From: a virus
Length of the DNA stretch: 44,979 nucleotides
Strand: one strand, 5' to 3'
Virus record (IMG/VR): IMGVR_UViG_3300029244_000004
Part shown: piece by piece, positions 4,995 to 44,900 of the stretch
How the letters are laid out: each line of letters opens with the position of its first letter
Position numbering within the stretch: the first letter of the stretch is position 1
Notes under the pieces: generated by a model
Databases searched by the model: none
Seen by the model: only the letters and a program-made list of their open reading frames with translations
Told to the model about the DNA's origin: nothing
Program-made: the position numbers and the translations under genes

Positions 4995-5630
4995 ATGAAA
5001 AAGAAAATGATAAAGTGCAAGAGCTGTGGAGCTGAAATCGCAAAAACCGCAAACCGGTGTCCTAACTGTGGAGCACGGCAGCATCAGGTCGCCTTGTCCA
5101 TCTGCGCTGTCATCATCGTGCTCACAGTTGTGGCCTGCATGGCCATCCTTATCCCTGCCATGAATGGAGATGGCTTGACAGGCCAAGGGACCAATCAGCC
5201 CGAGGAGAATAATACTGTTGGAATAGAAGGGGTTCTGTCAGCAGACTGCTTCGATCTTTCAGTCGTGGATGTGAAATGGACAACTGCGCTTGAAACCTCT
5301 CTTGGAACAATCGCCCCGGACGACGCAGAAAAAGGTTTGCTGTGTATCATCTTCTCTGCAAAAAATACAACGGACAGCGTTCAAAATGTGGCCAGTAGCG
5401 GGTTTAACGCTTACGCCGATGGGAAGAAGGTCATTCCAAAAGTCGTAGTTGGCGGCATTGATGATGCAGTTGTATTTGTTGGTGCTGTTTCTCCCGGCAT
5501 GGAAATTGTTGGCCATGTGGTGTGGGAACTTCCGCTTGATTGGGAGGAATTTCAGACATCATATATCGATGCCGGAACAGCGGTAGATAGCAAGCAGCAT
5601 TTTGTCATCAAAAAGAGCGATATAGAGTGA
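4995..5630 (+). CDS. zinc-ribbon / single-TM / DUF4352-like beta-sandwich membrane protein (moron)
   Basis: GGAGG lies 7 nt before the ATG. The protein has CKSCGAEI...CPNCG, then the hydrophobic stretch ALSICAVIIVLTVVACMAILIPA, then a DUF4352-like domain. It is on the opposite strand to the tail operon and has its own terminator. Confidence 0.75.
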   Translation: MKKKMIKCKSCGAEIAKTANRCPNCGARQHQVALSICAVIIVLTVVACMAILIPAMNGDGLTGQGTNQPEENNTVGIEGVLSADCFDLSVVDVKWTTALETSLGTIAPDDAEKGLLCIIFSAKNTTDSVQNVASSGFNAYADGKKVIPKVVVGGIDDAVVFVGAVSPGMEIVGHVVWELPLDWEEFQTSYIDAGTAVDSKQHFVIKKSDIE

Positions 5631-5637
5631 TTACGAG

Positions 5638-5662
5638 CCGCCCCTTCGGGGGCGGTTCTTTT
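5638..5662 (+). terminator. rho-independent terminator of the plus-strand moron
   Basis: CCGCCCC-ttcg-GGGGCGG followed by TTCTTTT. On the minus strand no U-run follows the hairpin. Confidence 0.8.
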
Positions 5663-6233
5663 ATCCCTTCGTCCACATATTGACCAAATCGTTCTCCGCT
5701 TCGCTGTACCGTGTCTTGATGTCCACAAGATCCTGATTCTTTCGGTAGAACTCCCGGTCCGATTTGTCCAAGGGCTTGCCTTTCGCTTTTTTCTCCCGGA
5801 TACGGACTATTTGAGCAAAGAGGCAGTCCCCGATCTCATAGTAGGCCGCCAGGAAAGTCCACCAATGTAAACCACCCGAATTTTTATTTGGGTCATAATC
5901 TACTGCTCTTGCCTCATAACCTAACACTCTGTTAATGGGAGCGACTATGTACGGATAATCTTGCTCCCAGTCCACCAGATTGGGAGCTTTTCGCCCCTCT
6001 GGCTGGTCCTTTCCCCCATTGATGAAGATCATGCACTCATGGATGGCCTCGTCAAAGTCAGAAAGGGCTTCCCATTCTGGATAGAACATCTGGAGCACGG
6101 CAAGAGCCCTATCTTCCTCTGATAAATCCGGGTCATTCATCGCCTCGAAAATATCCAGAATCACCCGGTAATCATAGCGGATGGCAAACTCCTCTCCGCC
6201 AACCATTACGCTTTTTGGTAATCCATAGCCCAT
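5661..6233 (-). CDS. Gp15-family tail assembly protein
   Basis: 190 aa directly upstream of the tape measure. It resembles the Phage_Gp15 family. Its own RBS is AAGGAG 7 nt before the ATG. Confidence 0.55.
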   Translation of the reverse strand: MGYGLPKSVMVGGEEFAIRYDYRVILDIFEAMNDPDLSEEDRALAVLQMFYPEWEALSDFDEAIHECMIFINGGKDQPEGRKAPNLVDWEQDYPYIVAPINRVLGYEARAVDYDPNKNSGGLHWWTFLAAYYEIGDCLFAQIVRIREKKAKGKPLDKSDREFYRKNQDLVDIKTRYSEAENDLVNMWTKG

Positions 6234-8983: not shown

Positions 8984-9271
8984 TCAGGTTGATTTCGTGA
9001 CGGTAACGGTGTAAACCTTCTGCGCCGCCCCGTTTTTCACCGTGATAGTAACTGTGTTTGCCCCCTCCGCCCAGGTAGCCGCCGCGCCATTGCTTACGGG
9101 CGTTTCGCCATTCAAGATGGTTACTGTCGCCTCGTCATCCTCTGGCGTTGCGGTGATGGTGTTGGTAGCGTTTGTCGTGTTGGCTGTATACTCCGTCGCA
9201 TCTGGGTCAAACGACGGAGTTAGTGTCAGCGCGCCAATCGTCAGCCCCGAGAGGCGCGCGCTTAACCCCCC
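8984..9271 (-). CDS. -1 frame C-terminal extension of the major capsid protein encoding an Ig/cadherin-like beta-sandwich domain (93 codons)
   Basis: The -1 frame is open from the slippery site to TGA at 8986-8984. There is no ATG/GTG/TTG before codon 51. Translation: LSARLSGLTIGALTLTPSFDPDATEYTANTTNATNTITATPEDDEATVTILNGETPVSNGAAATWAEGANTVTITVKNGAAQKVYTVTVTKST. Confidence 0.7.
   Translation of the reverse strand, partial: GGLSARLSGLTIGALTLTPSFDPDATEYTANTTNATNTITATPEDDEATVTILNGETPVSNGAAATWAEGANTVTITVKNGAAQKVYTVTVTKST
9229..9271 (-). promoter_or_regulatory. programmed -1 ribosomal frameshift signal
   Basis: The mRNA reads GCG GGG GGT TAA. The heptamer G_GGG_GGT lies at 9271-9265, followed by a 5-nt spacer. 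A 7-bp all-GC stem (9259-9253 pairing with 9235-9229) has a 17-nt loop. Confidence 0.65.
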
Positions 9272-10233
9272 GCTGGCTCGTAGACAGCAAAAGGGAAGGC
9301 GTTCTCCAGCCCCGCATTATAGGCGTTGATGGGATTGGGGATCTCCCAGCCCAGCCGCATGACGGCACGGAGAGCCACCATGTCATTCTGCATCAGGTTA
9401 TAAAGGATGTTTCCGGTAGTGGGGTCCTGCACCACACCGCTGTCAAAGATCTTGAAGGTCATATCCTGCCGGATGGCATAGACCAACTGGCTCCAGTCAC
9501 CCACAATGGCCAGGGATTCCTCCGGGTCAAAAGCGCCGTTGACAGGGAAGTACATAGACATACCATCCAGCGCGTAGCGGGTGTCACCCTGCATGTCGGT
9601 CTTGAAAATGGGCTGACCGTTCTTGTCCACCAGGCCGCGCAGCTTGGCCCGCATCTGGATAGCAGCCATCACGCCGTTGGGGATATAACCGCTCTCCTCC
9701 ACTTTGGCGATCACACCGCCCTCACCCATGATGTCCTTGAAAATATCGCTGGTAGCAGTCACAACAGCGTTTGCAGTAGTAGCCGAAGGAACCAAGCCCT
9801 CACGCCAGGAGGTGGGCTTGTCCGTGCCGTACAGGATGGCGGCGTCGATGACCTTACCGAATGCTTCCTGGAGACGGGGGCGTACTTCACCCCAGATGTC
9901 GTAGTTGCTGTCATCCAGCACTGCCTCTGGGATGGGGACGATGACAGCGATCTCCTCGGCGTAGATTTTCTTCTTGTCCCACGCCATGTTGGTGGTCTTT
10001 TTGAGGGATGCCTTGGAGTCAGACGCTCCAGTCGTAGCCTCGCCGTTCACAAAGTAGGCGGTGGGCAGTGCGTCCAGCACGTTAAGGGTCTGGGTCTTAC
10101 TGGTCATGTTGGGCAGCCGTCTGGCCATCCGCAGCACGGCGGACTCCGTTACGGCTCCCTGGATAATCTCACGGGTCACGGGTTCAGGAATAAGCCCGGA
10201 AAGTTTACTTCTATCAATAATATCAACAGCCAT
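9262..10233 (-). CDS. major capsid protein (HK97 fold), zero-frame product
   Basis: 323 aa following the scaffold gene. The sequence pattern is HK97-family (..LRMARRLPNMTSKTQTLNVL..AYFVNGE..IAVIVPIPEAVLDDS..). Confidence 0.85.
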   Translation of the reverse strand: MAVDIIDRSKLSGLIPEPVTREIIQGAVTESAVLRMARRLPNMTSKTQTLNVLDALPTAYFVNGEATTGASDSKASLKKTTNMAWDKKKIYAEEIAVIVPIPEAVLDDSNYDIWGEVRPRLQEAFGKVIDAAILYGTDKPTSWREGLVPSATTANAVVTATSDIFKDIMGEGGVIAKVEESGYIPNGVMAAIQMRAKLRGLVDKNGQPIFKTDMQGDTRYALDGMSMYFPVNGAFDPEESLAIVGDWSQLVYAIRQDMTFKIFDSGVVQDPTTGNILYNLMQNDMVALRAVMRLGWEIPNPINAYNAGLENAFPFAVYEPAGG

Positions 10234-10246
10234 TTAGGTTCTCCTT

Positions 10247-10747
10247 TCATTTCAGTGCGCCCCGAATCAGGGCATTCATTACATCGTTTTCTCCTGTTTT
10301 GGAGCTTCCGCCACCCACAGGAGCGGTCCAGTCAAAAGTGGTCTTTTTGCGGTCAGCGGTCAGGGCGTCCACGGCTTGCTCAAAGGTGGTCTTATCGTCC
10401 ACCATCTTCCAAGCCTTGAAGGCGATAAACTCCGCCTCCTCGCCGGTCAGGCCCTTCTTCAGAACGTACAGTTCCCGTTTCAACTGGTCCCGCTCGCTTT
10501 CCGCGGCGGTCAGTTTGCCGGAGAGGGTGTCCCGCTCGCCGGTCAGCTTATCCCAGCGTTCTTTCTCACCAGCCTGTCCAGTTTGCCAAGTGCGGTAGGC
10601 AGTCAGTTCTTCCTCGCTGGGCATCCCCTTCATGGCTTTTGCAAGCCGCTTGCCAATCATGGCATCCACTTCCGCCTGAGTGAAGGTTTTCTCAGGGGCG
10701 GGCTCCGGCGCAGGGGCCGGGGTAGGGTTATTGATAGGTTCGCTCAT
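10247..10747 (-). CDS. scaffolding protein (DUF4355-like)
   Basis: 166 aa with a PAPAPEP N-terminus, TQAEVDAMIGKRLAK and coiled-coil sequence, located upstream of the capsid gene. Confidence 0.75.
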   Translation of the reverse strand: MSEPINNPTPAPAPEPAPEKTFTQAEVDAMIGKRLAKAMKGMPSEEELTAYRTWQTGQAGEKERWDKLTGERDTLSGKLTAAESERDQLKRELYVLKKGLTGEEAEFIAFKAWKMVDDKTTFEQAVDALTADRKKTTFDWTAPVGGGSSKTGENDVMNALIRGALK

Positions 10748-10809
10748 AAATACCTCCGTTTATTGTCAGGGCCGTCGCCCTGCGGTTTTACGCCTCTCGG
10801 CATGGATAC

Positions 10810-10861
10810 AAAAGAAAAAGCGTGGGCAACCAACTACAATCTGTAGTCAGTTACCCACGCT
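10810..10861 (-). terminator. strong intrinsic terminator inside the head module
   Basis: Minus-strand RNA: AGCGUGGGUAAC...GUUGCCCACGCU. An inner CUACA-GAU-UGUAG helix extends it to about 20 bp. It is followed by UUUUUCUUUU. Confidence 0.8.
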
Positions 10862-10881
10862 CGGGTCTTCCGCCTCAACGC

Positions 10882-11052
10882 TTAGAGTCGGGAGCAATAT
10901 TCATTTGATTTCGGATATTCCGCCGTTTCCACCCTTGTTTTTGATAAATCAATAGAAGCACATTCCGTCTTTAATCGCTCATTTTCTCGGATTAGGTCAG
11001 CCACTCGCTTTTGATTGGCATTCTCGCAAAAATCCTTCCACCAATTGCTCAC
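10882..11052 (-). CDS. 56-aa hypothetical protein of an autonomous moron (GTG start)
   Basis: GGGAGGAAG lies 9 nt before the GTG. Translation: SNWWKDFCENANQKRVADLIRENERLKTECASIDLSKTRVETAEYPKSNEYCSRL. It is bracketed by its own promoter and terminator and is AT-richer than its surroundings. Confidence 0.4.
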   Translation of the reverse strand: MSNWWKDFCENANQKRVADLIRENERLKTECASIDLSKTRVETAEYPKSNEYCSRL

Positions 11053-11082
11053 ATTCTCACTTCCTCCCGCTTGATATGTATA

Positions 11083-11111
11083 ATTTTAACACCATTTTTC
11101 ACGGGAATCAA
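11083..11111 (-). promoter_or_regulatory. sigma-70-type promoter of the moron
   Basis: Minus strand: TTGATT, 17 nt, TAAAAT. Confidence 0.55.
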
Positions 11112-11163
11112 CTCAACGCGGCTTCCTTTGGATAGAAGTGCTTCGATTATGCATTTCGCTTTA

Positions 11164-11382
11164 TCATCCAATAATATCGATGCGTTCAATTTCGTCCTCC
11201 GTAAATCCGATCAGCAAACCTTTTTCATTCTCCACATCGAACTCCAGAAACTCATTTCCATCATCGTCGAAGTCGTAATCATACCCATAGAGCTCCCCAA
11301 TCGTCATGCGCCCGCTTGTGGAAAAAACTTTAATTTTCTTTCCGAAGTAAATCTCAGGATTTTCAATTATCATTTTTTCCAC
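11164..11382 (-). CDS. small acidic protein, candidate immunity protein for the MuF-borne toxin
   Basis: 72 aa (..YGYDYDFDDDGNEFLEFDVENEKG..). Its start overlaps the last 13 nt of the toxin-bearing gene. It is AT-rich like the toxin segment. Confidence 0.55.
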   Translation of the reverse strand: MEKMIIENPEIYFGKKIKVFSTSGRMTIGELYGYDYDFDDDGNEFLEFDVENEKGLLIGFTEDEIERIDIIG

Positions 11383-12932
11383 CTCCCCGAAAATGGAACG
11401 CCATGAGCTCCGCTTTTGCTATAATGGATTTTGATGCTTCTTGCAATTATTATATCACCGTTTCTATTGATTGTATATCCAATCTCTTTGCCGGCGTCAA
11501 TAATTTCTGTATTTTTCCACTTTTTAAAATCATCTGTAAAATTGATTTTCCCGCTACCTGCCTTTGCGTTTATGATGGCTTGTAACTCCTCCATAGAAAC
11601 CGTTATTACACTTCTACCCGGTATAGCCATACCAGCCATATGCCGCGCTTGTTTCTCTGGATTGATTTCCAACGGATACTCACCGCTTTGGATTGCCTGC
11701 CTGATCGGTGCTTCCGCATCGCGCTGTATTTTGAGGGCTGAAGCCATTTGCTCAGATGCCACATCGGTATAGGTAACTTTCATCCGTTCCCGCTGCAACG
11801 GCAGCCCAGCCGCCTCGCTGAACGACTTATATTCTGCGTTTAGCCGCCGAATGCGGGCTGTCACCGATTGAGCGTCCTCTTCCAGCCCTGCGGCCTTGTA
11901 TGCCGTCTGTTCCCGCTTCAGCTTGCGGACGGTCCGCTCGATTTGCCTCTGCTTCTGGGTAGCCTCATAGGCTGTATAGTGCTTACCCTCAAAGTCAACG
12001 TCGTGGCCGTCGTCAATGTGGGCCAGCTCCTCATCGGTGTATGTGCGCTCCATCACACCATCCACAAATGCAGTCCTGATATGACGGCAGTTGGCTCCTT
12101 CCAGTCCATCCACATAACCAAGGCCGCACACCTCGTAGATGTTCGGATACTTGTCCCCGGCTCTGACAGAGTACACACGGCCCTGCCATAACTTGTGGTT
12201 CTGCCAGCCGACACCCTTATCCCGTGCCCCGATGTGGGCGGACACTTCAAAATAAGGTGTTTCCAGATATTCAGCACTCTGCTCCGTGTACTTGGCACAG
12301 AGCTGGGATACGCCTGTCATCACTGCACGACGGGCAGCCACGTCAATTTGGTCTCGGTGTCCGCTCTCGTAATCCACGATCTTGATACCGCTGTCCGCAA
12401 GCTGTTTGACGGCGCTTTTGATGGCCTGATTGTAAGAGATGGCCCCGCTCGTGATCTGCATCTCCGCATTGTCCAGCGCCCATTGATAGGCTTTTGCAGG
12501 CTTCAGCATCGTCCGCCCATTGTCCACCAGAAATCCCATGGAGCGGGTCAGGTTTCCAACCTCCCGCTGTGCCTGTGCCATGATGGCGGCAATCTCGGTG
12601 ACACTCACAAGCATTTCAGGTGCAGTCACCCCCGCAAGGTCTATGACCTCTCGGTAGTACCGCTGGTTACGCTCTACTACGTCGTCCAGCAGCTTTTTAA
12701 GGTCCCGCTGGCTGATGTTGGTGGTGCGTTGGATGGCCTTTTCGATTTCCTCCAGGCTGATGCCGTGGGAGCGAAGCGCCCGGATGTCCTGCACCGTGAC
12801 CTCGTTCAACTCGCCAGCCAGTTTCAGCCGGGAGCATATCTCGTTAAGGAGGATCGCCTCCAGACTGCGGTATAGTTCGGTCAGTCCTTCCGGGAGAGCA
12901 TCGAGAAGTTCCGGGGTGAATGGATATCTCAT
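11370..12932 (-). CDS. head morphogenesis / minor capsid protein (MuF, SPP1 gp7-like) with C-terminal Ntox50-like polymorphic toxin domain
   Basis: The gene follows the portal. The N-terminal two thirds match the minor-capsid-protein-2/MuF pattern (..EGANCRHIRTAFVDG..). The last about 125 aa read NPEKQARHMAG..PGRSVITVSMEELQ..AGSGK..W.NTE..IGY..IKIHYSKSGAHGVP. Confidence 0.8.
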   Translation of the reverse strand: MRYPFTPELLDALPEGLTELYRSLEAILLNEICSRLKLAGELNEVTVQDIRALRSHGISLEEIEKAIQRTTNISQRDLKKLLDDVVERNQRYYREVIDLAGVTAPEMLVSVTEIAAIMAQAQREVGNLTRSMGFLVDNGRTMLKPAKAYQWALDNAEMQITSGAISYNQAIKSAVKQLADSGIKIVDYESGHRDQIDVAARRAVMTGVSQLCAKYTEQSAEYLETPYFEVSAHIGARDKGVGWQNHKLWQGRVYSVRAGDKYPNIYEVCGLGYVDGLEGANCRHIRTAFVDGVMERTYTDEELAHIDDGHDVDFEGKHYTAYEATQKQRQIERTVRKLKREQTAYKAAGLEEDAQSVTARIRRLNAEYKSFSEAAGLPLQRERMKVTYTDVASEQMASALKIQRDAEAPIRQAIQSGEYPLEINPEKQARHMAGMAIPGRSVITVSMEELQAIINAKAGSGKINFTDDFKKWKNTEIIDAGKEIGYTINRNGDIIIARSIKIHYSKSGAHGVPFSGRWKK

Positions 12933-14350
12933 TCAATCTCCTCTTCCTCCTCGTCTGTCATATCCTCCATCTTTGGAAGCATCTTCTTTGCCGTGGCCTC
13001 GTCCTCGTTCATCCACTTAGACCGGAACTCCCAGTCATTCATGATACCGGCGTTCAGAAGCTGCATATCCCTGGCAAAATCAGACTGCTTGTCCTCGATG
13101 ATGGAGTCATCAAAGTCAATGGAAATCTCCACGTCCTCATTCAGTCCGGCATTCATGGCCGTGTTTCCCAGGCGGAGGATGATCCGGCACAGCTCGGTCA
13201 ATACCTGCTCCAGAATGATTTCATGTTTCTTGATCGTACGGAACATGGTGCTGTTCTCGCTGATGACCTGCGTCGCTGTAGCCACGCTACCCTGGTCGAA
13301 TCTGTAATGGTTCTCTCCGAATCCGCACTTGCTGGACAGCAAATTGAGCTGGTCCTGGATTCCTGTATTGTGCTCCTGCGTCCGAAGGGTCATATCAATG
13401 GGGGTGATGATCCCGTTATTGTCCGTATCCTCCGGGAGCACATAATATGTCAGGTCGTCTGGGTCGAAAAACGGCTCTCCATCCAAGTCCTTTGTAGCTG
13501 AGGGCTTTACCATGATACGCTTTTTCCCCAGGATGAACTCGTTTACATAGCTGTCATAAGCCACGTCCACGCCCTTGAGCACGTCGATGGCGTTGGCAAA
13601 CACAGAGATGCCAAGAGGAATATTATCGTCGTAGTTGTTGGCGATGTTGGGCCGGTCAATGACAAACTGCCGACGGTCCGACCCAGTATGTACCACCTGT
13701 GGAACCCGCTCAAAGCCTGACACATCAGCCAGTAAAACTTCCGCATCCACATTGTTGTTCCGGTATCGGTAGAGCCGGTTCTCAATGTCGTACAGGCCGT
13801 TGACCTTGTGGTGGATCTGGAGGTAGCAGTAGTCCTCTCCATTGATTGTAACGATGCTGTCAAAAGCGCACTCTGTAATGATTCCATTCCGCCATGCCAG
13901 CGGCCAAATGTGCTCTACGGTCACATAGTCCATCACAATTCCGTCGGCGCTTCCGGGGACAGGCCCTTCTTCCGTGGCCTCCATGCCCACAACCCTGGGG
14001 ATAAAGGCTACCGTCCCAAGGGCAAACGCCTTTTCCTGCATCTCATTGGATTTCACCAAAAAGTTGTTTTCCTCGAATACTCGGTCAACAAATTCCTGCT
14101 CTTTGCTGCCCTCCAGGGTGATTACTACCTTCTCGTTCATCAGAAGGTTCGCCCAATCCTCCGGGATTTTCTTGCCCATATTGAGAGTGTACCGCTTGCA
14201 CCGAACCACACTAGCCCCGTTGTGGACCTTGTACCTGTGGAATCCCTTCACGTCGCCCACATACCAAGACTTCCACTCCTGCACTTTTGTGTAAAACTCC
14301 TCCGGCACCGTGGAGTAACCAAGCTCTTTCAGTTTTTCTGTAATATTCAT
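12929..14350 (-). CDS. portal protein (SPP1 gp6-like)
   Basis: 473 aa directly after the large terminase, with an acidic C-terminus (EEEEEIE). Confidence 0.85.
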   Translation of the reverse strand: MNITEKLKELGYSTVPEEFYTKVQEWKSWYVGDVKGFHRYKVHNGASVVRCKRYTLNMGKKIPEDWANLLMNEKVVITLEGSKEQEFVDRVFEENNFLVKSNEMQEKAFALGTVAFIPRVVGMEATEEGPVPGSADGIVMDYVTVEHIWPLAWRNGIITECAFDSIVTINGEDYCYLQIHHKVNGLYDIENRLYRYRNNNVDAEVLLADVSGFERVPQVVHTGSDRRQFVIDRPNIANNYDDNIPLGISVFANAIDVLKGVDVAYDSYVNEFILGKKRIMVKPSATKDLDGEPFFDPDDLTYYVLPEDTDNNGIITPIDMTLRTQEHNTGIQDQLNLLSSKCGFGENHYRFDQGSVATATQVISENSTMFRTIKKHEIILEQVLTELCRIILRLGNTAMNAGLNEDVEISIDFDDSIIEDKQSDFARDMQLLNAGIMNDWEFRSKWMNEDEATAKKMLPKMEDMTDEEEEEIE

Positions 14351-15585
14351 GCCGTTATTCCCATCCTTCGGAATACTCTCTCCAGGGCATATCTAGTAGC
14401 GTCAATCAGGTGATTGTTCTCATCAGGATAACCGCTGATAATTTCTCCGTCCTTATTTCGCTCATACTCATAATTCACAAACTCGTTGTATGCATTTGGC
14501 GTTCTTCTGCGGTCAATGACAATCTTCCGCCTCTGGAGCCACTTCATGCCGTACTCTACACTCCCAGAGCCTTTAATTGCTTCTTTGGCTGGGAGCCCCA
14601 TCGCCCGGTAGTCTGCTGATGATTTAGGCTCTGCGCTGTCGCAGGTAATGTAAGCGTCCTTGTACCCTTTGGAAAGAATCAACTTCCCGCTCGCCTCGTT
14701 GGTCAGCTTATTTTGGTATATCTCGTCCATCAGATAAATCGTCTCTCTGGCCCGATCATAGTGGAGGCGGATAAAGGCAAAGGGGTCAGGAAACCAGCCC
14801 CAGTCCACGCCTTGATAAATCTTGTCAAAAGACGCAATCTCTTTGTCTGTGATCTCCCGCAACTCAAGGTTTTCGAATACGTTCCCGCCAGTTCCAACAG
14901 CTTCACCTAGATATTCATGACGGTACGCCCGCTCATCTGTGGCTTTCAGGTGCTCGGCTTCCGCCATGAACTGCGCTCCCAGCCACTCTGGCGGGGCCTC
15001 AAGGTATGTACTCTTGTGGCACAGCCTGTCCACCCGCTCCTCCAAACTGTCCTTGTTGGCCCAGTTATCCCGGCTGATTGGTGGATTGTAGCTCTCAAAA
15101 TTCCAGAACTTCGACCCACCTCTCATGGTAGATTGCAGTATAGTTCGGATCTCAGCCCGACCAGCGAACTGATCTTTCTCCTCAAAATGGGTGACGGCGA
15201 TATAGCCAAAGGGAACCTTGATAGACTTGATTTTCATGGGATCATCCGCACCCCGGAACATAATTTTCTGGCCGGTTGGCCTATAAATCAGTTCCATAGG
15301 CTGCACCTTTGCATCCCAGTATTCTGCCATTCCAAGCTCTCCAATGCCCCAGAGATATTGTGCGTATACACTGTCTCGAATCGTATTAGCTACCTTTCGG
15401 AGCACAAGGGCGTGAGTCCCTGGGTTGTTTATCAGCAGCAACGGAACTAGTAAGGACACACAGGAGGATTTCAGTGAGCCTCGGCCGCCGGACAGGTCGT
15501 AGTGTGTATGTCCGTGCTGAAATACATCACGGGCCAGCAAATGAAATGCGGGGCCAAGTACAGTAGATAAGCGCACCTCAGACAT
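14347..15585 (-). CDS. terL: terminase large subunit (PBSX/Terminase_3-like)
   Basis: 412 aa with a Walker A-like LSGGRGSLKSS and a nuclease-half pattern. It is flanked by the small terminase and portal genes. Confidence 0.9.
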   Translation of the reverse strand: MSEVRLSTVLGPAFHLLARDVFQHGHTHYDLSGGRGSLKSSCVSLLVPLLLINNPGTHALVLRKVANTIRDSVYAQYLWGIGELGMAEYWDAKVQPMELIYRPTGQKIMFRGADDPMKIKSIKVPFGYIAVTHFEEKDQFAGRAEIRTILQSTMRGGSKFWNFESYNPPISRDNWANKDSLEERVDRLCHKSTYLEAPPEWLGAQFMAEAEHLKATDERAYRHEYLGEAVGTGGNVFENLELREITDKEIASFDKIYQGVDWGWFPDPFAFIRLHYDRARETIYLMDEIYQNKLTNEASGKLILSKGYKDAYITCDSAEPKSSADYRAMGLPAKEAIKGSGSVEYGMKWLQRRKIVIDRRRTPNAYNEFVNYEYERNKDGEIISGYPDENNHLIDATRYALERVFRRMGITA

Positions 15586-33088: not shown

Positions 33089-33144
33089 GTAAAAAGTACG
33101 GTCATCTGTAATTTTGCCTTTTTGCACAAATGCCGGGAGGAATT

Positions 33145-33519
33145 ATGGAAGATTTGTACAAGCATATAGAAGGACTTGGAAGGGAACACGGTTATAAGAA
33201 CATGACTGTTCTCTGTAAGGCTGCCGGGGTTCCCCGTTCCACGATGTCGGAATTAAATAATGGGAGAAGCAAAGACCTTTCCAAACCAAACGCCCAAAAA
33301 TTCGCAGATATTCTGGGAATTACTCTGGATGAGGTATATGGAGAAGAAACAAAAAAAGCGCCCACCCAAGAGGATGAGCGCGAGATAACTTTTGATGATT
33401 TTACTTTTGCGATGCAAAACGAAAGCAAAGACTTGACCGAGGCAGATAAGCAAATCCTTCTATCAATGGCAAAACAGCTTAATGATGCAAGGAAGAAGAG
33501 AAATGGAGAATCTAAATAG
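33145..33519 (+). CDS. CI-like XRE-family repressor
   Basis: HTH: ..MTVLCKAAGVPRSTMSELNNGRSK.. The gene is followed by ImmA. The start may be 33130 or 33145. Confidence 0.75.
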   Translation: MEDLYKHIEGLGREHGYKNMTVLCKAAGVPRSTMSELNNGRSKDLSKPNAQKFADILGITLDEVYGEETKKAPTQEDEREITFDDFTFAMQNESKDLTEADKQILLSMAKQLNDARKKRNGESK

Positions 33520-34235: not shown

Positions 34236-34398
34236 AAAATAAAAGCCCCCGGTGCTACCAACACCGAGGGCGGGCCGTAGATGCTACCAACATCAACGGG
34301 AAGCAAAGCACCCCAAACCGATAAATCCAAGGCACCTTTGCGCCCTTTTATTGTATCATACTGGGACCACGGGTGCAACCATAAAAAGGAGGAGCACC

Positions 34399-35448
34399 AT
34401 GAAGCGAGCAAATGGGACCGGAACTGTGGTCAAACTATCCGGTAACCGGAGCCGTCCATACTGTGTCAGAATATCCCAGCGAGATAAGCGTGGATATGTA
34501 ATCCAAACAGCCGTCAGTTACCATGCGAAGGCCGCCGAGGCACAGGCCGCCTTGGATGAATTAGTCAAGAAAATCCAAGCTGGGAATCATATCAGCGCCG
34601 ATACAATCAATACGACATGGGGGCAGGCTTATGAGATATGGTCCGCTCGAAAGTACAGGATAGCTGGACCTGCCTCCGTGGCATCCTATAAAGCCTCCTG
34701 GAGCCGTGTAGGGGCTCTAGCTGACCGGAAGGCCAGGAGTATTACTATTGATGATCTCCAGGCTATCATTGACCAGGATGCGGCGGATGGTATGTCTAGC
34801 TCGTCCATTAATAACGACTGCATCCTTATCAAAGCTCTGTTTAAATTTTTAATGGAACGTGACATTGTTGCGAAGGACTACTCCGCTTTTATTCAGGTCC
34901 CGAAGGTCGGTCCGAAGCATACCAAAGGTGCCTTTGACGACCTACAGATGGCAAGACTGGAGAAGTTGGCTAAAGAAGGATTCCCATGGGCTGACACGGT
35001 GCTCATGCTCTGCTATACCGGCCTCCGCATCAACGAGTTTTTGTCCCTCACTCCATTCAACTTTGATCCAGACACAGGATGCTTAACTGGCGGCAGCAAA
35101 ACTGAAGCTGGGAAGGGTAGGACCGTTCCTGTTCATCCAAAAATCCGCTCATACTTTGACCGCTGGATGGCAGATCAGGCAGATACTATTATCCATCAGG
35201 ACGGAAATCCCATATCAGACAGGTGGTATCGAGCATCAGCATTCAAAGGTGTCATGGACGCTCTAGGTGTAACTGGTGCTACACCACACTGGTGCCGCCA
35301 CACTTTCGTAACCAGAGCTAAGATAGCTGGGGTGGATGAGATGGCCCTAAAGTTCATTGTTGGGCACTCGCAACGTGGCAATATCACCGCACAATACACC
35401 CACCCAGATCCCTCCTGGCTTGCCACCGAGATGGCAAAAATCGCATAA
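34399..35448 (+). CDS. int: tyrosine integrase
   Basis: AGGAGGAG lies before ATG 34399. Catalytic-core pattern: ..LCYTGLRINEF..., HWCRHTF, GHS...YTH. Confidence 0.85.
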   Translation: MKRANGTGTVVKLSGNRSRPYCVRISQRDKRGYVIQTAVSYHAKAAEAQAALDELVKKIQAGNHISADTINTTWGQAYEIWSARKYRIAGPASVASYKASWSRVGALADRKARSITIDDLQAIIDQDAADGMSSSSINNDCILIKALFKFLMERDIVAKDYSAFIQVPKVGPKHTKGAFDDLQMARLEKLAKEGFPWADTVLMLCYTGLRINEFLSLTPFNFDPDTGCLTGGSKTEAGKGRTVPVHPKIRSYFDRWMADQADTIIHQDGNPISDRWYRASAFKGVMDALGVTGATPHWCRHTFVTRAKIAGVDEMALKFIVGHSQRGNITAQYTHPDPSWLATEMAKIA

Positions 35449-43994: not shown

Positions 43995-44900
43995 TCACCC
44001 CGTAATCTGAACGGAAATTACCATTGTCTGACCGGCGTCTACTGGATTGGGCGTTATGGTCGCACTGACAATCTGCGGAACGGATGTATCAAGCGTGACG
44101 TTGATGGTCACGGACGTGGATTTCCCGGCCTGGTCAGTGGACGTGACCACAATAGCATTTGCGCCGTTCGCCAACGTGATTGTCTTAGAAAACGCACCGC
44201 TCGATTCCACAGTAACCGCGCCCTGATCTACACTGTTTAGCTGAATGGTCACTGTCACTGGGCTTGAGGTCGTGTCATTTGTAGTGCCTGTTACAGTAAT
44301 AGACGCATTGTTGGTAATCAGCCCATCCGTCGGACTAGTTACATTCAGGGACGGAGCTACCGTATCCACCGTAAAGGTGGTAGACTTCTGTGCGGCTGCG
44401 TTTCCGTCGTTGTCAGATGCATCTACGCTTACCGTGTGACTTCCATCTTTAAGCGGAGAGGCCGCAGTATAAGTAAAGCTGTATCCGTTCGTTACCGCAC
44501 TGTGCGTGACCTCGCCTACGGATACCTGATTGTTGTCCAGCTTCACCACAACGCTGTTCAGATTTACGCCAGAGCCGCCAGCTTCATCTATGACAGTAAA
44601 TGTGACAGGCTGATTGCTGTTCGTTACACGTGCGCCATTCGTCGGAGATGTAATTGTAATAACCGGCGCTACTGTTTCCTTAACCACAAGCTGAAGCCCG
44701 TCAATGGTCGATCCGTCTGCTGTGGCTTGTGTGCCCGCTGTATTGGTCGCTTCAACCGTCACATTATAGTATCCATTAGGCTGATTAAACGATGTGGCAC
44801 CTGGAGCCGTGATCGTGGCTTCCCAACTTTGAGTCCCATCGTTATATGTCAGTGTGTGCCATGTTCCGTTGACCTGTGCCCGGACTGTTTGTATTGCCAT
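43995..44900 (-). CDS. Ig-like (Big-type) repeat tail-fibre/adhesin protein
   Basis: Repeated modules: VAPVITITSPTNGARVTNSNQPVTFTV..., DTVAPSLNVTSPTDGLITNNASITVTGTT..., DTSVPQIVSATITPNPVDAGQ... Confidence 0.7.
   Translation of the reverse strand: MAIQTVRAQVNGTWHTLTYNDGTQSWEATITAPGATSFNQPNGYYNVTVEATNTAGTQATADGSTIDGLQLVVKETVAPVITITSPTNGARVTNSNQPVTFTVIDEAGGSGVNLNSVVVKLDNNQVSVGEVTHSAVTNGYSFTYTAASPLKDGSHTVSVDASDNDGNAAAQKSTTFTVDTVAPSLNVTSPTDGLITNNASITVTGTTNDTTSSPVTVTIQLNSVDQGAVTVESSGAFSKTITLANGANAIVVTSTDQAGKSTSVTINVTLDTSVPQIVSATITPNPVDAGQTMVISVQITG

Follow-up and report, generated by a model that had tools for sequence, protein, structure and literature searches.

Zhang et al. (2012, PMC3482391) described Ntox50 as a predicted ribonuclease (RNase) of the BECR fold with the conserved residues H, S, K, T, H, K and HxVP, and listed MuF among its delivery domains and caudoviruses among its hosts, with no immunity family. 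Jamet et al. (2017, PMC5576092) also named Ntox50 among the toxin domains linked to MuF, noted small open reading frames (ORFs) downstream, and reported MuF toxins from temperate phages only and not from virulent ones; the role of MuF toxins has been described as unknown (PMC10083569, PMC12226406). Here we analysed the IMG/VR virus record IMGVR_UViG_3300029244_000004 (44,979 nucleotides (nt) in its full length; henceforth referred to as the window), in which a MuF minor head protein of 520 amino acids (aa) ends in an Ntox50 tail and is followed by a gene for a small acidic protein. It is very probable that these two genes are a toxin and its immunity gene, and the chances are about even for the further steps, in which the toxin would be delivered by the virion and the lysogen would be immune. 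Taken as a whole, the statement that the locus encodes a temperate-phage MuF polymorphic toxin with its cognate immunity gene, including the delivery mechanism set out below, appears to us probable.

Several characterised systems resemble parts of this locus. The C-terminal domain (CTD) of YxiD from Bacillus subtilis 6633 has been assigned to PF15542 and solved together with its immunity protein (9V8I); it is a metal-dependent tRNase with His447, His521 and His528 in the active site and Lys446 and Lys524 at the substrate, and its basic substrate face is blocked by the proven immunity protein, YxxD, which is folded as an Sm-like barrel (2025, PMC12700104). The same study paired YxiD-CTD structurally with MafB2-CT of Neisseria meningitidis B16B6 (8HHJ), and reported that the conformation and recognition mode of MafI2 differ from those of YxxD. 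MafB2-CT differs from the window protein in its MafB secretion context and its Gram-negative origin. The Apk2-IapK-Aph1 system of Streptococcus pneumoniae and Bacteroides caccae has the same architecture as the window, namely a MuF body, a toxic tail and immunity downstream, and antibacterial toxicity and neutralisation have been demonstrated for these MuF toxins; it differs in having a (p)ppApp synthetase tail and two immunity proteins, one of them enzymatic (PMC10083569, PMC12226406). Finally, SPP1 gp7 is a homologous minor head protein encoded beside the portal gene, with neither a toxin tail nor an immunity gene; from it comes the idea that MuF proteins are present in few capsid copies, bind portal and DNA, and leave with the DNA (as cited in PMC5576092 and PMC10083569). 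The corresponding features of the window, all on the minus strand, are as follows.

11370..12932, minus strand: MuF-Ntox50 gene, minor head protein with toxin tail, 520 aa (ORF list, Pfam, PHROGs)
11777..12932, minus strand: conserved MuF body, aa 1-385, ending in the junction motif QRERMK/V (80 loci; the slash is the junction)
11370..11776, minus strand: exchangeable tail, aa 386-520, a linker helix and then Ntox50 (tail classes, breakpoints)
11394..11666, minus strand: Ntox50 domain, PF15542 (BECR-fold RNase), aa 423-513 (Pfam)
11640..11642, minus strand: codon of His431, aligned with the catalytic His447 of YxiD (profile alignment to 9v8i_B)
11403..11426, minus strand: codons of His503, Lys506 and His510 (IHYSKSGAHGVP), aligned with His521, Lys524 and His528 of YxiD (profile alignment)
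11449..11477, minus strand: promoter-like site within the toxin coding sequence, TATACA, 17 nt, TGaTATAAT (consensus scan)
11164..11373, minus strand: candidate immunity gene, 69 aa from ATG, phrog_1865 (ATGA overlap with the toxin stop)

A preliminary description, made by eye, had proposed that the 520-aa gene after the portal gene consists of a minor-capsid (MuF) body and an Ntox50 tail, and both parts were confirmed. The body corresponds to Pfam PF06152 Phage_min_cap2 (MuF2) at aa 6-371 (E 2e-84), and the 520-aa protein matches phrog_581, minor head protein, in PHROGs (E 4e-95). When the tail was compared with the Pfam toxin models by hidden Markov model (HMM), it matched the full length of the Ntox50 model (positions 1-92/92; E 5.4e-20) with 72.4 bits against a gathering cut-off of 22.2, a match that is, as judged from its profile score, far above chance level. 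The motifs quoted in the preliminary description, KQARH, PGRSVIT and IHYSKSGAHGVP, are all present in the tail, and the conserved Ntox50 set is represented by H431, S441, T487, H503, K506 and H510-G-V-P. In 31 homologues of the window tail H431, S441, T487, H503 and H510 are invariant, and in the alignment of 9v8i_B with a profile built from these homologues the spacing H(+3)K(+4)H is the same in the window tail and in YxiD. An AlphaFold2 (AF2) model of aa 395-520 (predicted local distance difference test (pLDDT) score 87.5) had YxiD-CTD, 9v8i_B, as its best PDB match (Foldseek E 4.8e-6; template modelling (TM) scores 0.59/0.69), followed by MafB2-CT, 8hhj_B (Foldseek E 0.024, probability 0.98), and then by a CdiA-CT. 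The model thus gives the tail the BECR fold, and its residues make it a predicted RNase with the full His/His/Lys/His active-site set; the exchangeable tail is basic, with an isoelectric point (pI) of 9.56. NCBIfam gave no match, and PADLOC gave one marginal match for the MuF protein (PDC-S37, E 0.003) and none for the three small ORFs that follow it, so that a reading of the locus as a defence system is without real support.

The gene that follows the toxin had been described preliminarily as a 72-aa acidic ORF beginning 13 nt inside the toxin gene. Such an ORF does exist, starting at GTG 11382 with a 13-nt overlap, and the acidity was borne out. However, ATG 11373 is the likelier start, because it and the MuF stop codon overlap as ATGA, it is preceded by GGAGG 8 nt upstream and it coincides with the start in 35 of 36 aligned homologues; we therefore regard ATG 11373, with a 4-nt overlap that couples its translation to that of the toxin gene and a product of 69 aa, as most likely the true start. 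The 69-aa protein is strongly acidic (18 D+E against 6 K+R, pI 4.05) and matches phrog_1865, a PHROG without a curated threshold or function, with E 3.7e-8 over 58 of the 64 profile positions. It matched no immunity family in Pfam and nothing in NCBIfam or PADLOC, and PDB sequence searches with the single sequence and with a profile returned sub-threshold LSm matches only, with neither YxxD nor MafI2 among them. Its AF2 model (pLDDT 96) is an Sm-like barrel with 2e12, Sm and LSm proteins, YaeO (6jie) and Hfq (3hsb) as structural neighbours, which are of the same kinds as the structural neighbours reported for YxxD (PMC12700104). The 69-aa protein is thus predicted, with high confidence, to be an Sm-like small beta-barrel of the same fold as YxxD, and the two proteins appear alike in fold, size class, charge logic and gene position. 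At the level of the pair, the window and YxiD-CTD/YxxD share an Ntox50 toxin with His, His, Lys and His at the same positions and, as modelled here, an Sm-like immunity protein encoded directly downstream. They differ in delivery (LXG, that is type VII secretion, for YxiD as opposed to a phage head protein in the window), in toxin sequence (about 26% identity) and in that the tRNase activity of YxiD is experimental whereas the activity of the window tail is predicted.

To establish how tightly the small gene is tied to the toxin tail, we compared related loci in both directions. A homologue of the 69-aa protein starts at the toxin stop codon in 41/41 loci with the Ntox50 motifs (40 relatives and the window's own), and, starting from the 69-aa protein, the tail lies directly upstream in 40 of 41 IMG/VR loci, the remaining locus being cut by the contig end. 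In marked contrast, the gene occurs in none of 55 sister loci in which the tail is of another kind or missing. The toxin/immunity arrangement put forward in the preliminary description is therefore upheld. Identity to the window ranges from 42 to 99% for the small protein as against 63 to 98% for the toxin; the immunity protein thus diverges faster than the toxin and yet in parallel with it (r = 0.97, all pairs).

The association extends to phages in which neither protein is closely related to that of the window. An Ntox50 tail is present on the minor head protein in 48 GenBank phage records, in all of which it is less than 40% identical to the window tail, and tblastn of the window 69-aa protein against GenBank phages gave no match. 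The 64-66-aa ORFs that follow these Ntox50 tails are nevertheless members of phrog_1865 and match the window family by hhalign: phiC2p05 scores 1e-31 against phrog_1865 with an hhalign probability of 73% against the window family, and gp65 of SP120 scores 1e-21 and 96.9%, respectively. In Staphylococcus, Clostridioides, Streptococcus and Geobacillus phages the phrog_1865 ORF begins at most 25 nt after the end of Ntox50 (phiC2, phiMMP01/03, S. pseudintermedius phages, Streptococcus Javan prophages and phiOH2). Two of the described loci, gp04/gp05 of phiC2 (Clostridioides) and gp64/gp65 of SP120 (Staphylococcus), have the gene order of the window, namely portal, MuF-Ntox50, 64-66-aa ORF and scaffold, and their small ORFs belong to phrog_1865 as does the window protein; they differ in that their toxin tails are less than 40% identical to that of the window and in that the hosts of the window are gut Clostridia of the Oscillospiraceae type. 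Among 1.84 billion representative proteins, the family comprises 69 clusters at E <= 1e-3, nearly all of 60-80 aa, and one close variant of the immunity protein is present on 647 contigs. Two distant phrog_1865 members (P0233 and P0240) had no match in IMG/VR, and a third (P0221) matched one locus. Since its members follow Ntox50 tails across these phages, phrog_1865 can reasonably be read, on sequence grounds, as the immunity family of phage-borne Ntox50.

We then considered whether the tail and the small gene are exchanged as a unit, as the preliminary description had suggested. Using 80 IMG/VR loci with a MuF body 84-98% identical to that of the window, we found that blastn homology ends at window positions 11776-11781 (aa 386) in all loci without an Ntox50 tail, that the break falls inside the conserved motif QRERM[KRQ]V, and that homology with these loci restarts at 10802-10856, just upstream of the scaffold gene. 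With distant Ntox50 cassettes, homology ends at 11160-11173, that is at the immunity stop codon. Because homology breaks at the aa 386 junction and at the immunity stop codon, the mobile unit is 11164..11775, and the tail and the small gene move together between phage backbones as one 612-bp cassette. The reverse case is provided by locus L115, in which the tail is 98.5% identical to that of the window and the body just 65.7% identical. This mosaic of body and tail is the defining pattern of polymorphic toxins. The preliminary description had placed the change from body to tail near aa 395; the part that is exchanged starts somewhat earlier, at aa 386 (nt 11776). The AT-richer composition also noted there was verified: the guanine-plus-cytosine (GC) content is 0.36-0.44 over about 10800..11700 as opposed to 0.56-0.60 on either flank. 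The tails found behind the conserved body in the 80 loci fall into the following classes.

Ntox50 (PF15542): 25 loci
A 120-aa tail without a Pfam match, then a 64-aa acidic cysteine-rich ORF: 31 loci
PBECR2 (E 4e-16): 7 loci
CdiA_C (PF18451; E 3.6e-18): 3 loci
No tail, MuF protein of 386-389 aa: 14 loci

The tail-less variants of 386-389 aa in 14 of the 80 sister loci are the counterparts of SPP1 gp7. The commonest tail other than Ntox50 (L043, about 5160..5870, and 30 loci like it) has a length of about 120 aa, contains GKFSSRQYQVQLDPPQISGVTDHF and LVLYQTDRNTLKFLADSGYVVLSVDGKIVTAVP, and has no match in Pfam; after it come the 64-aa acidic cysteine-rich ORF and then a Cys_rich_KTR-like ORF, and we regard this tail and the 64-aa ORF as a candidate for an undescribed toxin/immunity pair. 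In the loci with a CdiA_C-tailed MuF protein (L021, about 5160..5884; also L081 and L027) a gap of 171 nt separates the MuF gene from the scaffold gene.

The window locus can be placed among described systems on this basis. As in the class described by Jamet et al. (PMC5576092), the protein has a MuF2 N-terminal domain, is encoded directly downstream of the portal gene and carries a known toxin domain at its C-terminus; there is a downstream ORF of <150 aa, the phage is temperate, and different C-termini occur on a conserved N-terminus. Because every computable criterion of the class is found here, we assign the locus to the MuF polymorphic toxins, of which it is a further example; the combination of MuF and Ntox50 was tabulated in 2012 and 2017. 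The present analysis adds the functional reading of phrog_1865, the exact junction of the swap, a candidate promoter embedded in the toxin gene, and orphan and relic copies of the module.

The promoter-like site lies within the toxin coding sequence about 76 nt upstream of the immunity ATG, with 10/12 consensus matches and an extended -10 element. It is kept in 11/11 distinct cassette variants, down to about 57-70% protein identity. When synonymous codon identity was calculated over 66 conserved, degenerate codon columns in the compared sequences, which are phylogenetically related, the five columns of the -10 box reached 0.94 against a mean of 0.64 and formed the best contiguous window of the 66 columns; random five-column sets reach 0.94 with a frequency of 1.2e-4. 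These results suggest that lysogens may be able to make the immunity protein without the toxin, from this internal promoter.

Homologues of the immunity gene also occur without a toxin. A 70-aa homologue (L100, 4001..4213) stands alone behind a helix-turn-helix (HTH) gene, at the margin of a prophage whose portal is of the P22 type; it is 61% identical over the tblastn match and matches phrog_1865 with E 1.7e-12. Further phrog_1865 genes are present on the Streptococcus satellite phages Javan632 (L109, 3001..3183; E 1.8e-9) and Javan462 (L110, 3001..3198; E 1.8e-18, hhalign probability 96.6%), with weaker tblastn matches on Javan354, 475, 504 and 529, and none of these satellite records is among the GenBank phage matches to Ntox50. 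An antidote kept without its poison would be expected if the poison comes from outside the cell, and the orphan immunity genes therefore support action of the toxin in trans; a satellite carried in the capsid of its helper would be injected along with the helper's MuF toxin.

Toxin/immunity modules were also found displaced from their head gene or outside phages. At L099 (441..3240; also L097 and L098) a 592-aa MuF protein with an HExxH-containing tail is followed by a 75-aa ORF and then by a 182-aa ORF, which consists of an approximately 45-aa repeat of the MuF body before the junction and then Ntox50, and the immunity gene follows. This looks like an orphan toxin/immunity module behind another MuF toxin, in a displaced array of the type seen in contact-dependent inhibition (CDI) and Rhs loci. 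We count this module, too, as support for action of the toxin in trans. Jamet et al. 2017 (PMC5576092) do not use the term 'orphan'. A chromosomal relic (L002-L004, 6001..7250; L010-L011) comprises MuF aa 329-520, the immunity gene, a zinc-ribbon gene, a hairpin and 33 scaffold codons, and is flanked by genes for a histidine kinase and an S8 peptidase in dozens of metagenome contigs; its ORFs are intact in this non-phage chromosomal setting. Its two alleles are 96% identical over 3 kb, and their differences, as seen in translations, fall in the C-terminal half of the toxin and the N-terminal two thirds of the immunity protein.

A sister clade has MuF genes that are interrupted at aa 255-277 (L005-L008, 6341..8651; L009, 6020..8651; L001, 760..1589) by an insert containing either a gene for a 244-aa N6_N4 methyltransferase or an ORF of 282 aa; this ORF has its own promoter-like site, and its product looks by eye like an HNH homing endonuclease. 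The conserved GANCRH motif is interrupted by an in-frame TAG in L001 and L005 (GANCR*RH) and by a 10-nt insert in L009, and the toxin-bearing half of the split gene has its own ribosome-binding site and ATG; decay, a functional split or recoding may account for this arrangement, and we do not choose between them. A group I intron was considered as the cause of the short toxin homologues (at most 216 aa) and rejected, as Rfam at gathering thresholds gave none in L001, L005 or L009; the short homologues can be traced to orphan modules, to relics, or to MuF genes cut in two by inserted genes. The same Rfam comparison returned an int-alpA RNA motif (53 bits; L009, 6911..6976) between the N-terminal half of MuF and the 282-aa ORF, and a DUF3800-VIII RNA motif (51 bits; L005, 2635..2699) upstream of the terminase gene.

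Three further features of the window lie in the interval from the immunity gene to the scaffold gene.

11049..11189, minus strand: orf46, 46 aa, TTG start with GGAGG 6 nt upstream, accompanying cargo
10882..11052, minus strand: orf56, 56 aa, GTG start, variable third cargo gene (ORF list)
10818..10862, minus strand: terminator-like hairpin with a 20-pair stem and a T-run, closing the variable region; the conserved scaffold-gene leader follows just downstream

We considered orf46 and orf56 as immunity or accessory parts of the module and rejected both, as they swap independently of the toxin/immunity pair. Genes resembling orf46, with the protein pattern ..A.IIEALL.KG.R.ELIP...G.KIIHIKR, occur with Ntox50, PBECR2, CdiA_C and tail-less MuF genes; because its relatives accompany every one of these tail classes as well as tail-less MuF, orf46 is not part of the pair. 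In sister phages with the same toxin/immunity pair a zinc-ribbon or Cys_rich_KTR gene takes the place of orf56. Each set of small-ORF cargo examined in sister phages is closed by its own hairpin, of different sequence, and no hairpin was found in two loci without such cargo (the tail-less L032 and the CdiA_C-tailed L021). The segment 10818..11189, with orf46, orf56 and the hairpin, is thus a moron-like cargo slot between the immunity and scaffold genes.

The wider setting of the locus is that of a prophage with its head-module genes on the minus strand, as assigned from the ORF list with Pfam and PHROGs. On this strand the order is TerL, portal, the 520-aa MuF gene, three small ORFs, the scaffold-like gene and the HK97-type capsid gene, and a DnaB-like helicase gene is encoded elsewhere in the window.

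14347..15585, minus strand: TerL, upstream of the portal gene
12929..14350, minus strand: SPP1-type portal gene (SPP1_portal, E 4.9e-18), overlapping the MuF start by 4 nt
10247..10747, minus strand: scaffold-like gene, downstream of the three small ORFs
9262..10233, minus strand: HK97-type capsid gene, after the scaffold-like gene
33130..33519: Cro/C1 HTH gene (repressor), lysogeny marker
34252..35448: tyrosine integrase, lysogeny marker

The presence of the integrase and of the Cro/C1 HTH gene identifies the window as a temperate phage or prophage, in agreement with the temperate-phage class proposed in the preliminary description. The hosts are gut Clostridia of the Oscillospiraceae type: cluster members, from which the host names are taken, are named Intestinimonas, Lawsonibacter and Flintibacter, relatives also occur in Pseudoflavonifractor and Muriventricola, and a contig scan with the whole MuF protein gave 5 loci, too few for host statistics. 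The lysogeny end of the prophage (32-35 kb) has a lower GC content, of 0.42-0.45, and the host flank is marked by a 301-aa protein with Big_13, Big_7 and Glucodextranase_B domains (43995..44900 of the window, outside the prophage).

Considering how such a locus might function, we propose that both proteins would be made together late in the lytic cycle, when the acidic barrel would cover the basic substrate face of the RNase and so spare the producing cell. A few copies of the MuF protein would be built into the capsid at the portal, as is SPP1 gp7, and would pass with the DNA into the next cell. Where that cell lacks the immunity protein, the RNase would cut tRNA or other RNA and arrest translation, whereas lysogens would be protected by immunity protein made alone from the promoter inside the toxin coding sequence. 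The outcome would be that immune kin are told apart from non-immune competitors or rival phages; this role as a weapon of competition or exclusion is inferred here as it is in the literature (PMC10083569, PMC12226406).

Several observations weigh against this proposal. The sequence similarity of the tail to YxiD-CTD is low, with E 0.15 by phmmer, E 0.015 by profile and only 26% identity in the structural alignment; given this weak plain similarity, the Ntox50 assignment rests jointly on the Pfam HMM, the residues and the fold. For the 69-aa protein, no homology to YxxD was detected by phmmer or profile comparison with 9v8i_A, and 9v8i_A is absent from the top 50 Foldseek matches of its model, for which reason the link to YxxD is argued through their common structural neighbours; the models thus support a common fold with YxxD, and common ancestry is not established. 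The promoter is a consensus match in AT-rich DNA, and the synonymous-site test compares related sequences. No ORF of at least 30 aa lies in the gap of L021, where there is no obvious immunity gene beside the CdiA_C tail; as the CdiA_C-tailed sisters have no small downstream ORF, an immunity gene is not universal behind this body. Injection delivery has not been demonstrated for any MuF toxin in the literature consulted (PMC10083569 and PMC12226406 call the role unknown), and the toxicity of the window tail, its RNase activity, its binding by the 69-aa protein and its presence in the virion are all predicted properties.

The alternative that survives best, although we consider it unlikely, is that the injected RNase serves the phage's own infection as a takeover or counter-defence effector, causing a transient shutdown of host translation or destroying particular host RNAs, and that the small protein, made early from the incoming genome, is a timer that switches the RNase off, rather than part of a weapon between bacteria. 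PBECR2, a BECR nuclease domain of phage type, is indeed an alternative tail at the identical junction, the PNAS 2023 discussion names an aid to infection by co-injection as one of two open possibilities, and Jamet et al. (PMC5576092) suggested that the toxins influence the decision for lysogeny; on this reading, superinfection exclusion would be the effect of an orphan immunity gene that a resident prophage carries. However, a general takeover factor would not be expected to be restricted to temperate phages, as MuF toxins are reported to be (PMC5576092), infection can do without the tail because 14 of the 80 near-identical loci have none, and strong diversification of the toxin/immunity interface is a mark of kin-discriminating weapons.

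Far less probable is a toxin-antitoxin module for addiction or abortive infection, which would act inside the carrier cell to stabilise the prophage, its tail never being delivered. A relic with intact ORFs in dozens of contigs is what an addictive module would leave behind, but here the toxin is fused to a virion protein and lies in the late head operon rather than in the lysogeny module, no anti-phage defence model matches, and toxin-less immunity genes on satellites and in an unrelated prophage would make no sense. The weakest alternative, that the 69-aa protein is a head-assembly chaperone or an RNA-binding Sm-like factor and the tail possibly an inactive structural extension, draws on the Sm/Hfq type of the fold, which is RNA-binding, and on the lack of a match to a Pfam immunity family, and we consider it most improbable since the protein occurs only with the Ntox50 tail and is absent from tail-less and other-tailed head modules, co-diverges with the tail, shares its fold with the proven Ntox50 immunity protein YxxD, and has an acidity unlike that of RNA-binding Sm proteins, while the tail keeps the same catalytic residues in all homologues compared.

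Overall, under our preferred reading as a MuF polymorphic toxin with its immunity gene, the locus confirms the published architecture and reveals no new one. MuF toxins are common in prophages of gut Firmicutes, and their role and their delivery in the virion are called unknown in the literature of 2023-2025. The locus is well suited to testing these points, as it has a defined RNase active site, a precise junction and natural controls without a tail or with other tails, and is frequent in assemblies; it also offers a candidate antidote family to which a function can now be assigned, and orphan antidotes to survey. We put forward tentatively, as a proposal that is somewhat less than evenly probable, that phrog_1865 is a dedicated Sm-like immunity family whose toxin-less copies, together with the embedded promoter, indicate injection of the toxin from the capsid into other cells. 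If this is true, satellites and rival prophages would carry the antidote as they or their hosts meet the toxin in trans, and the family would provide the first genomic lead on the purpose of MuF toxins.

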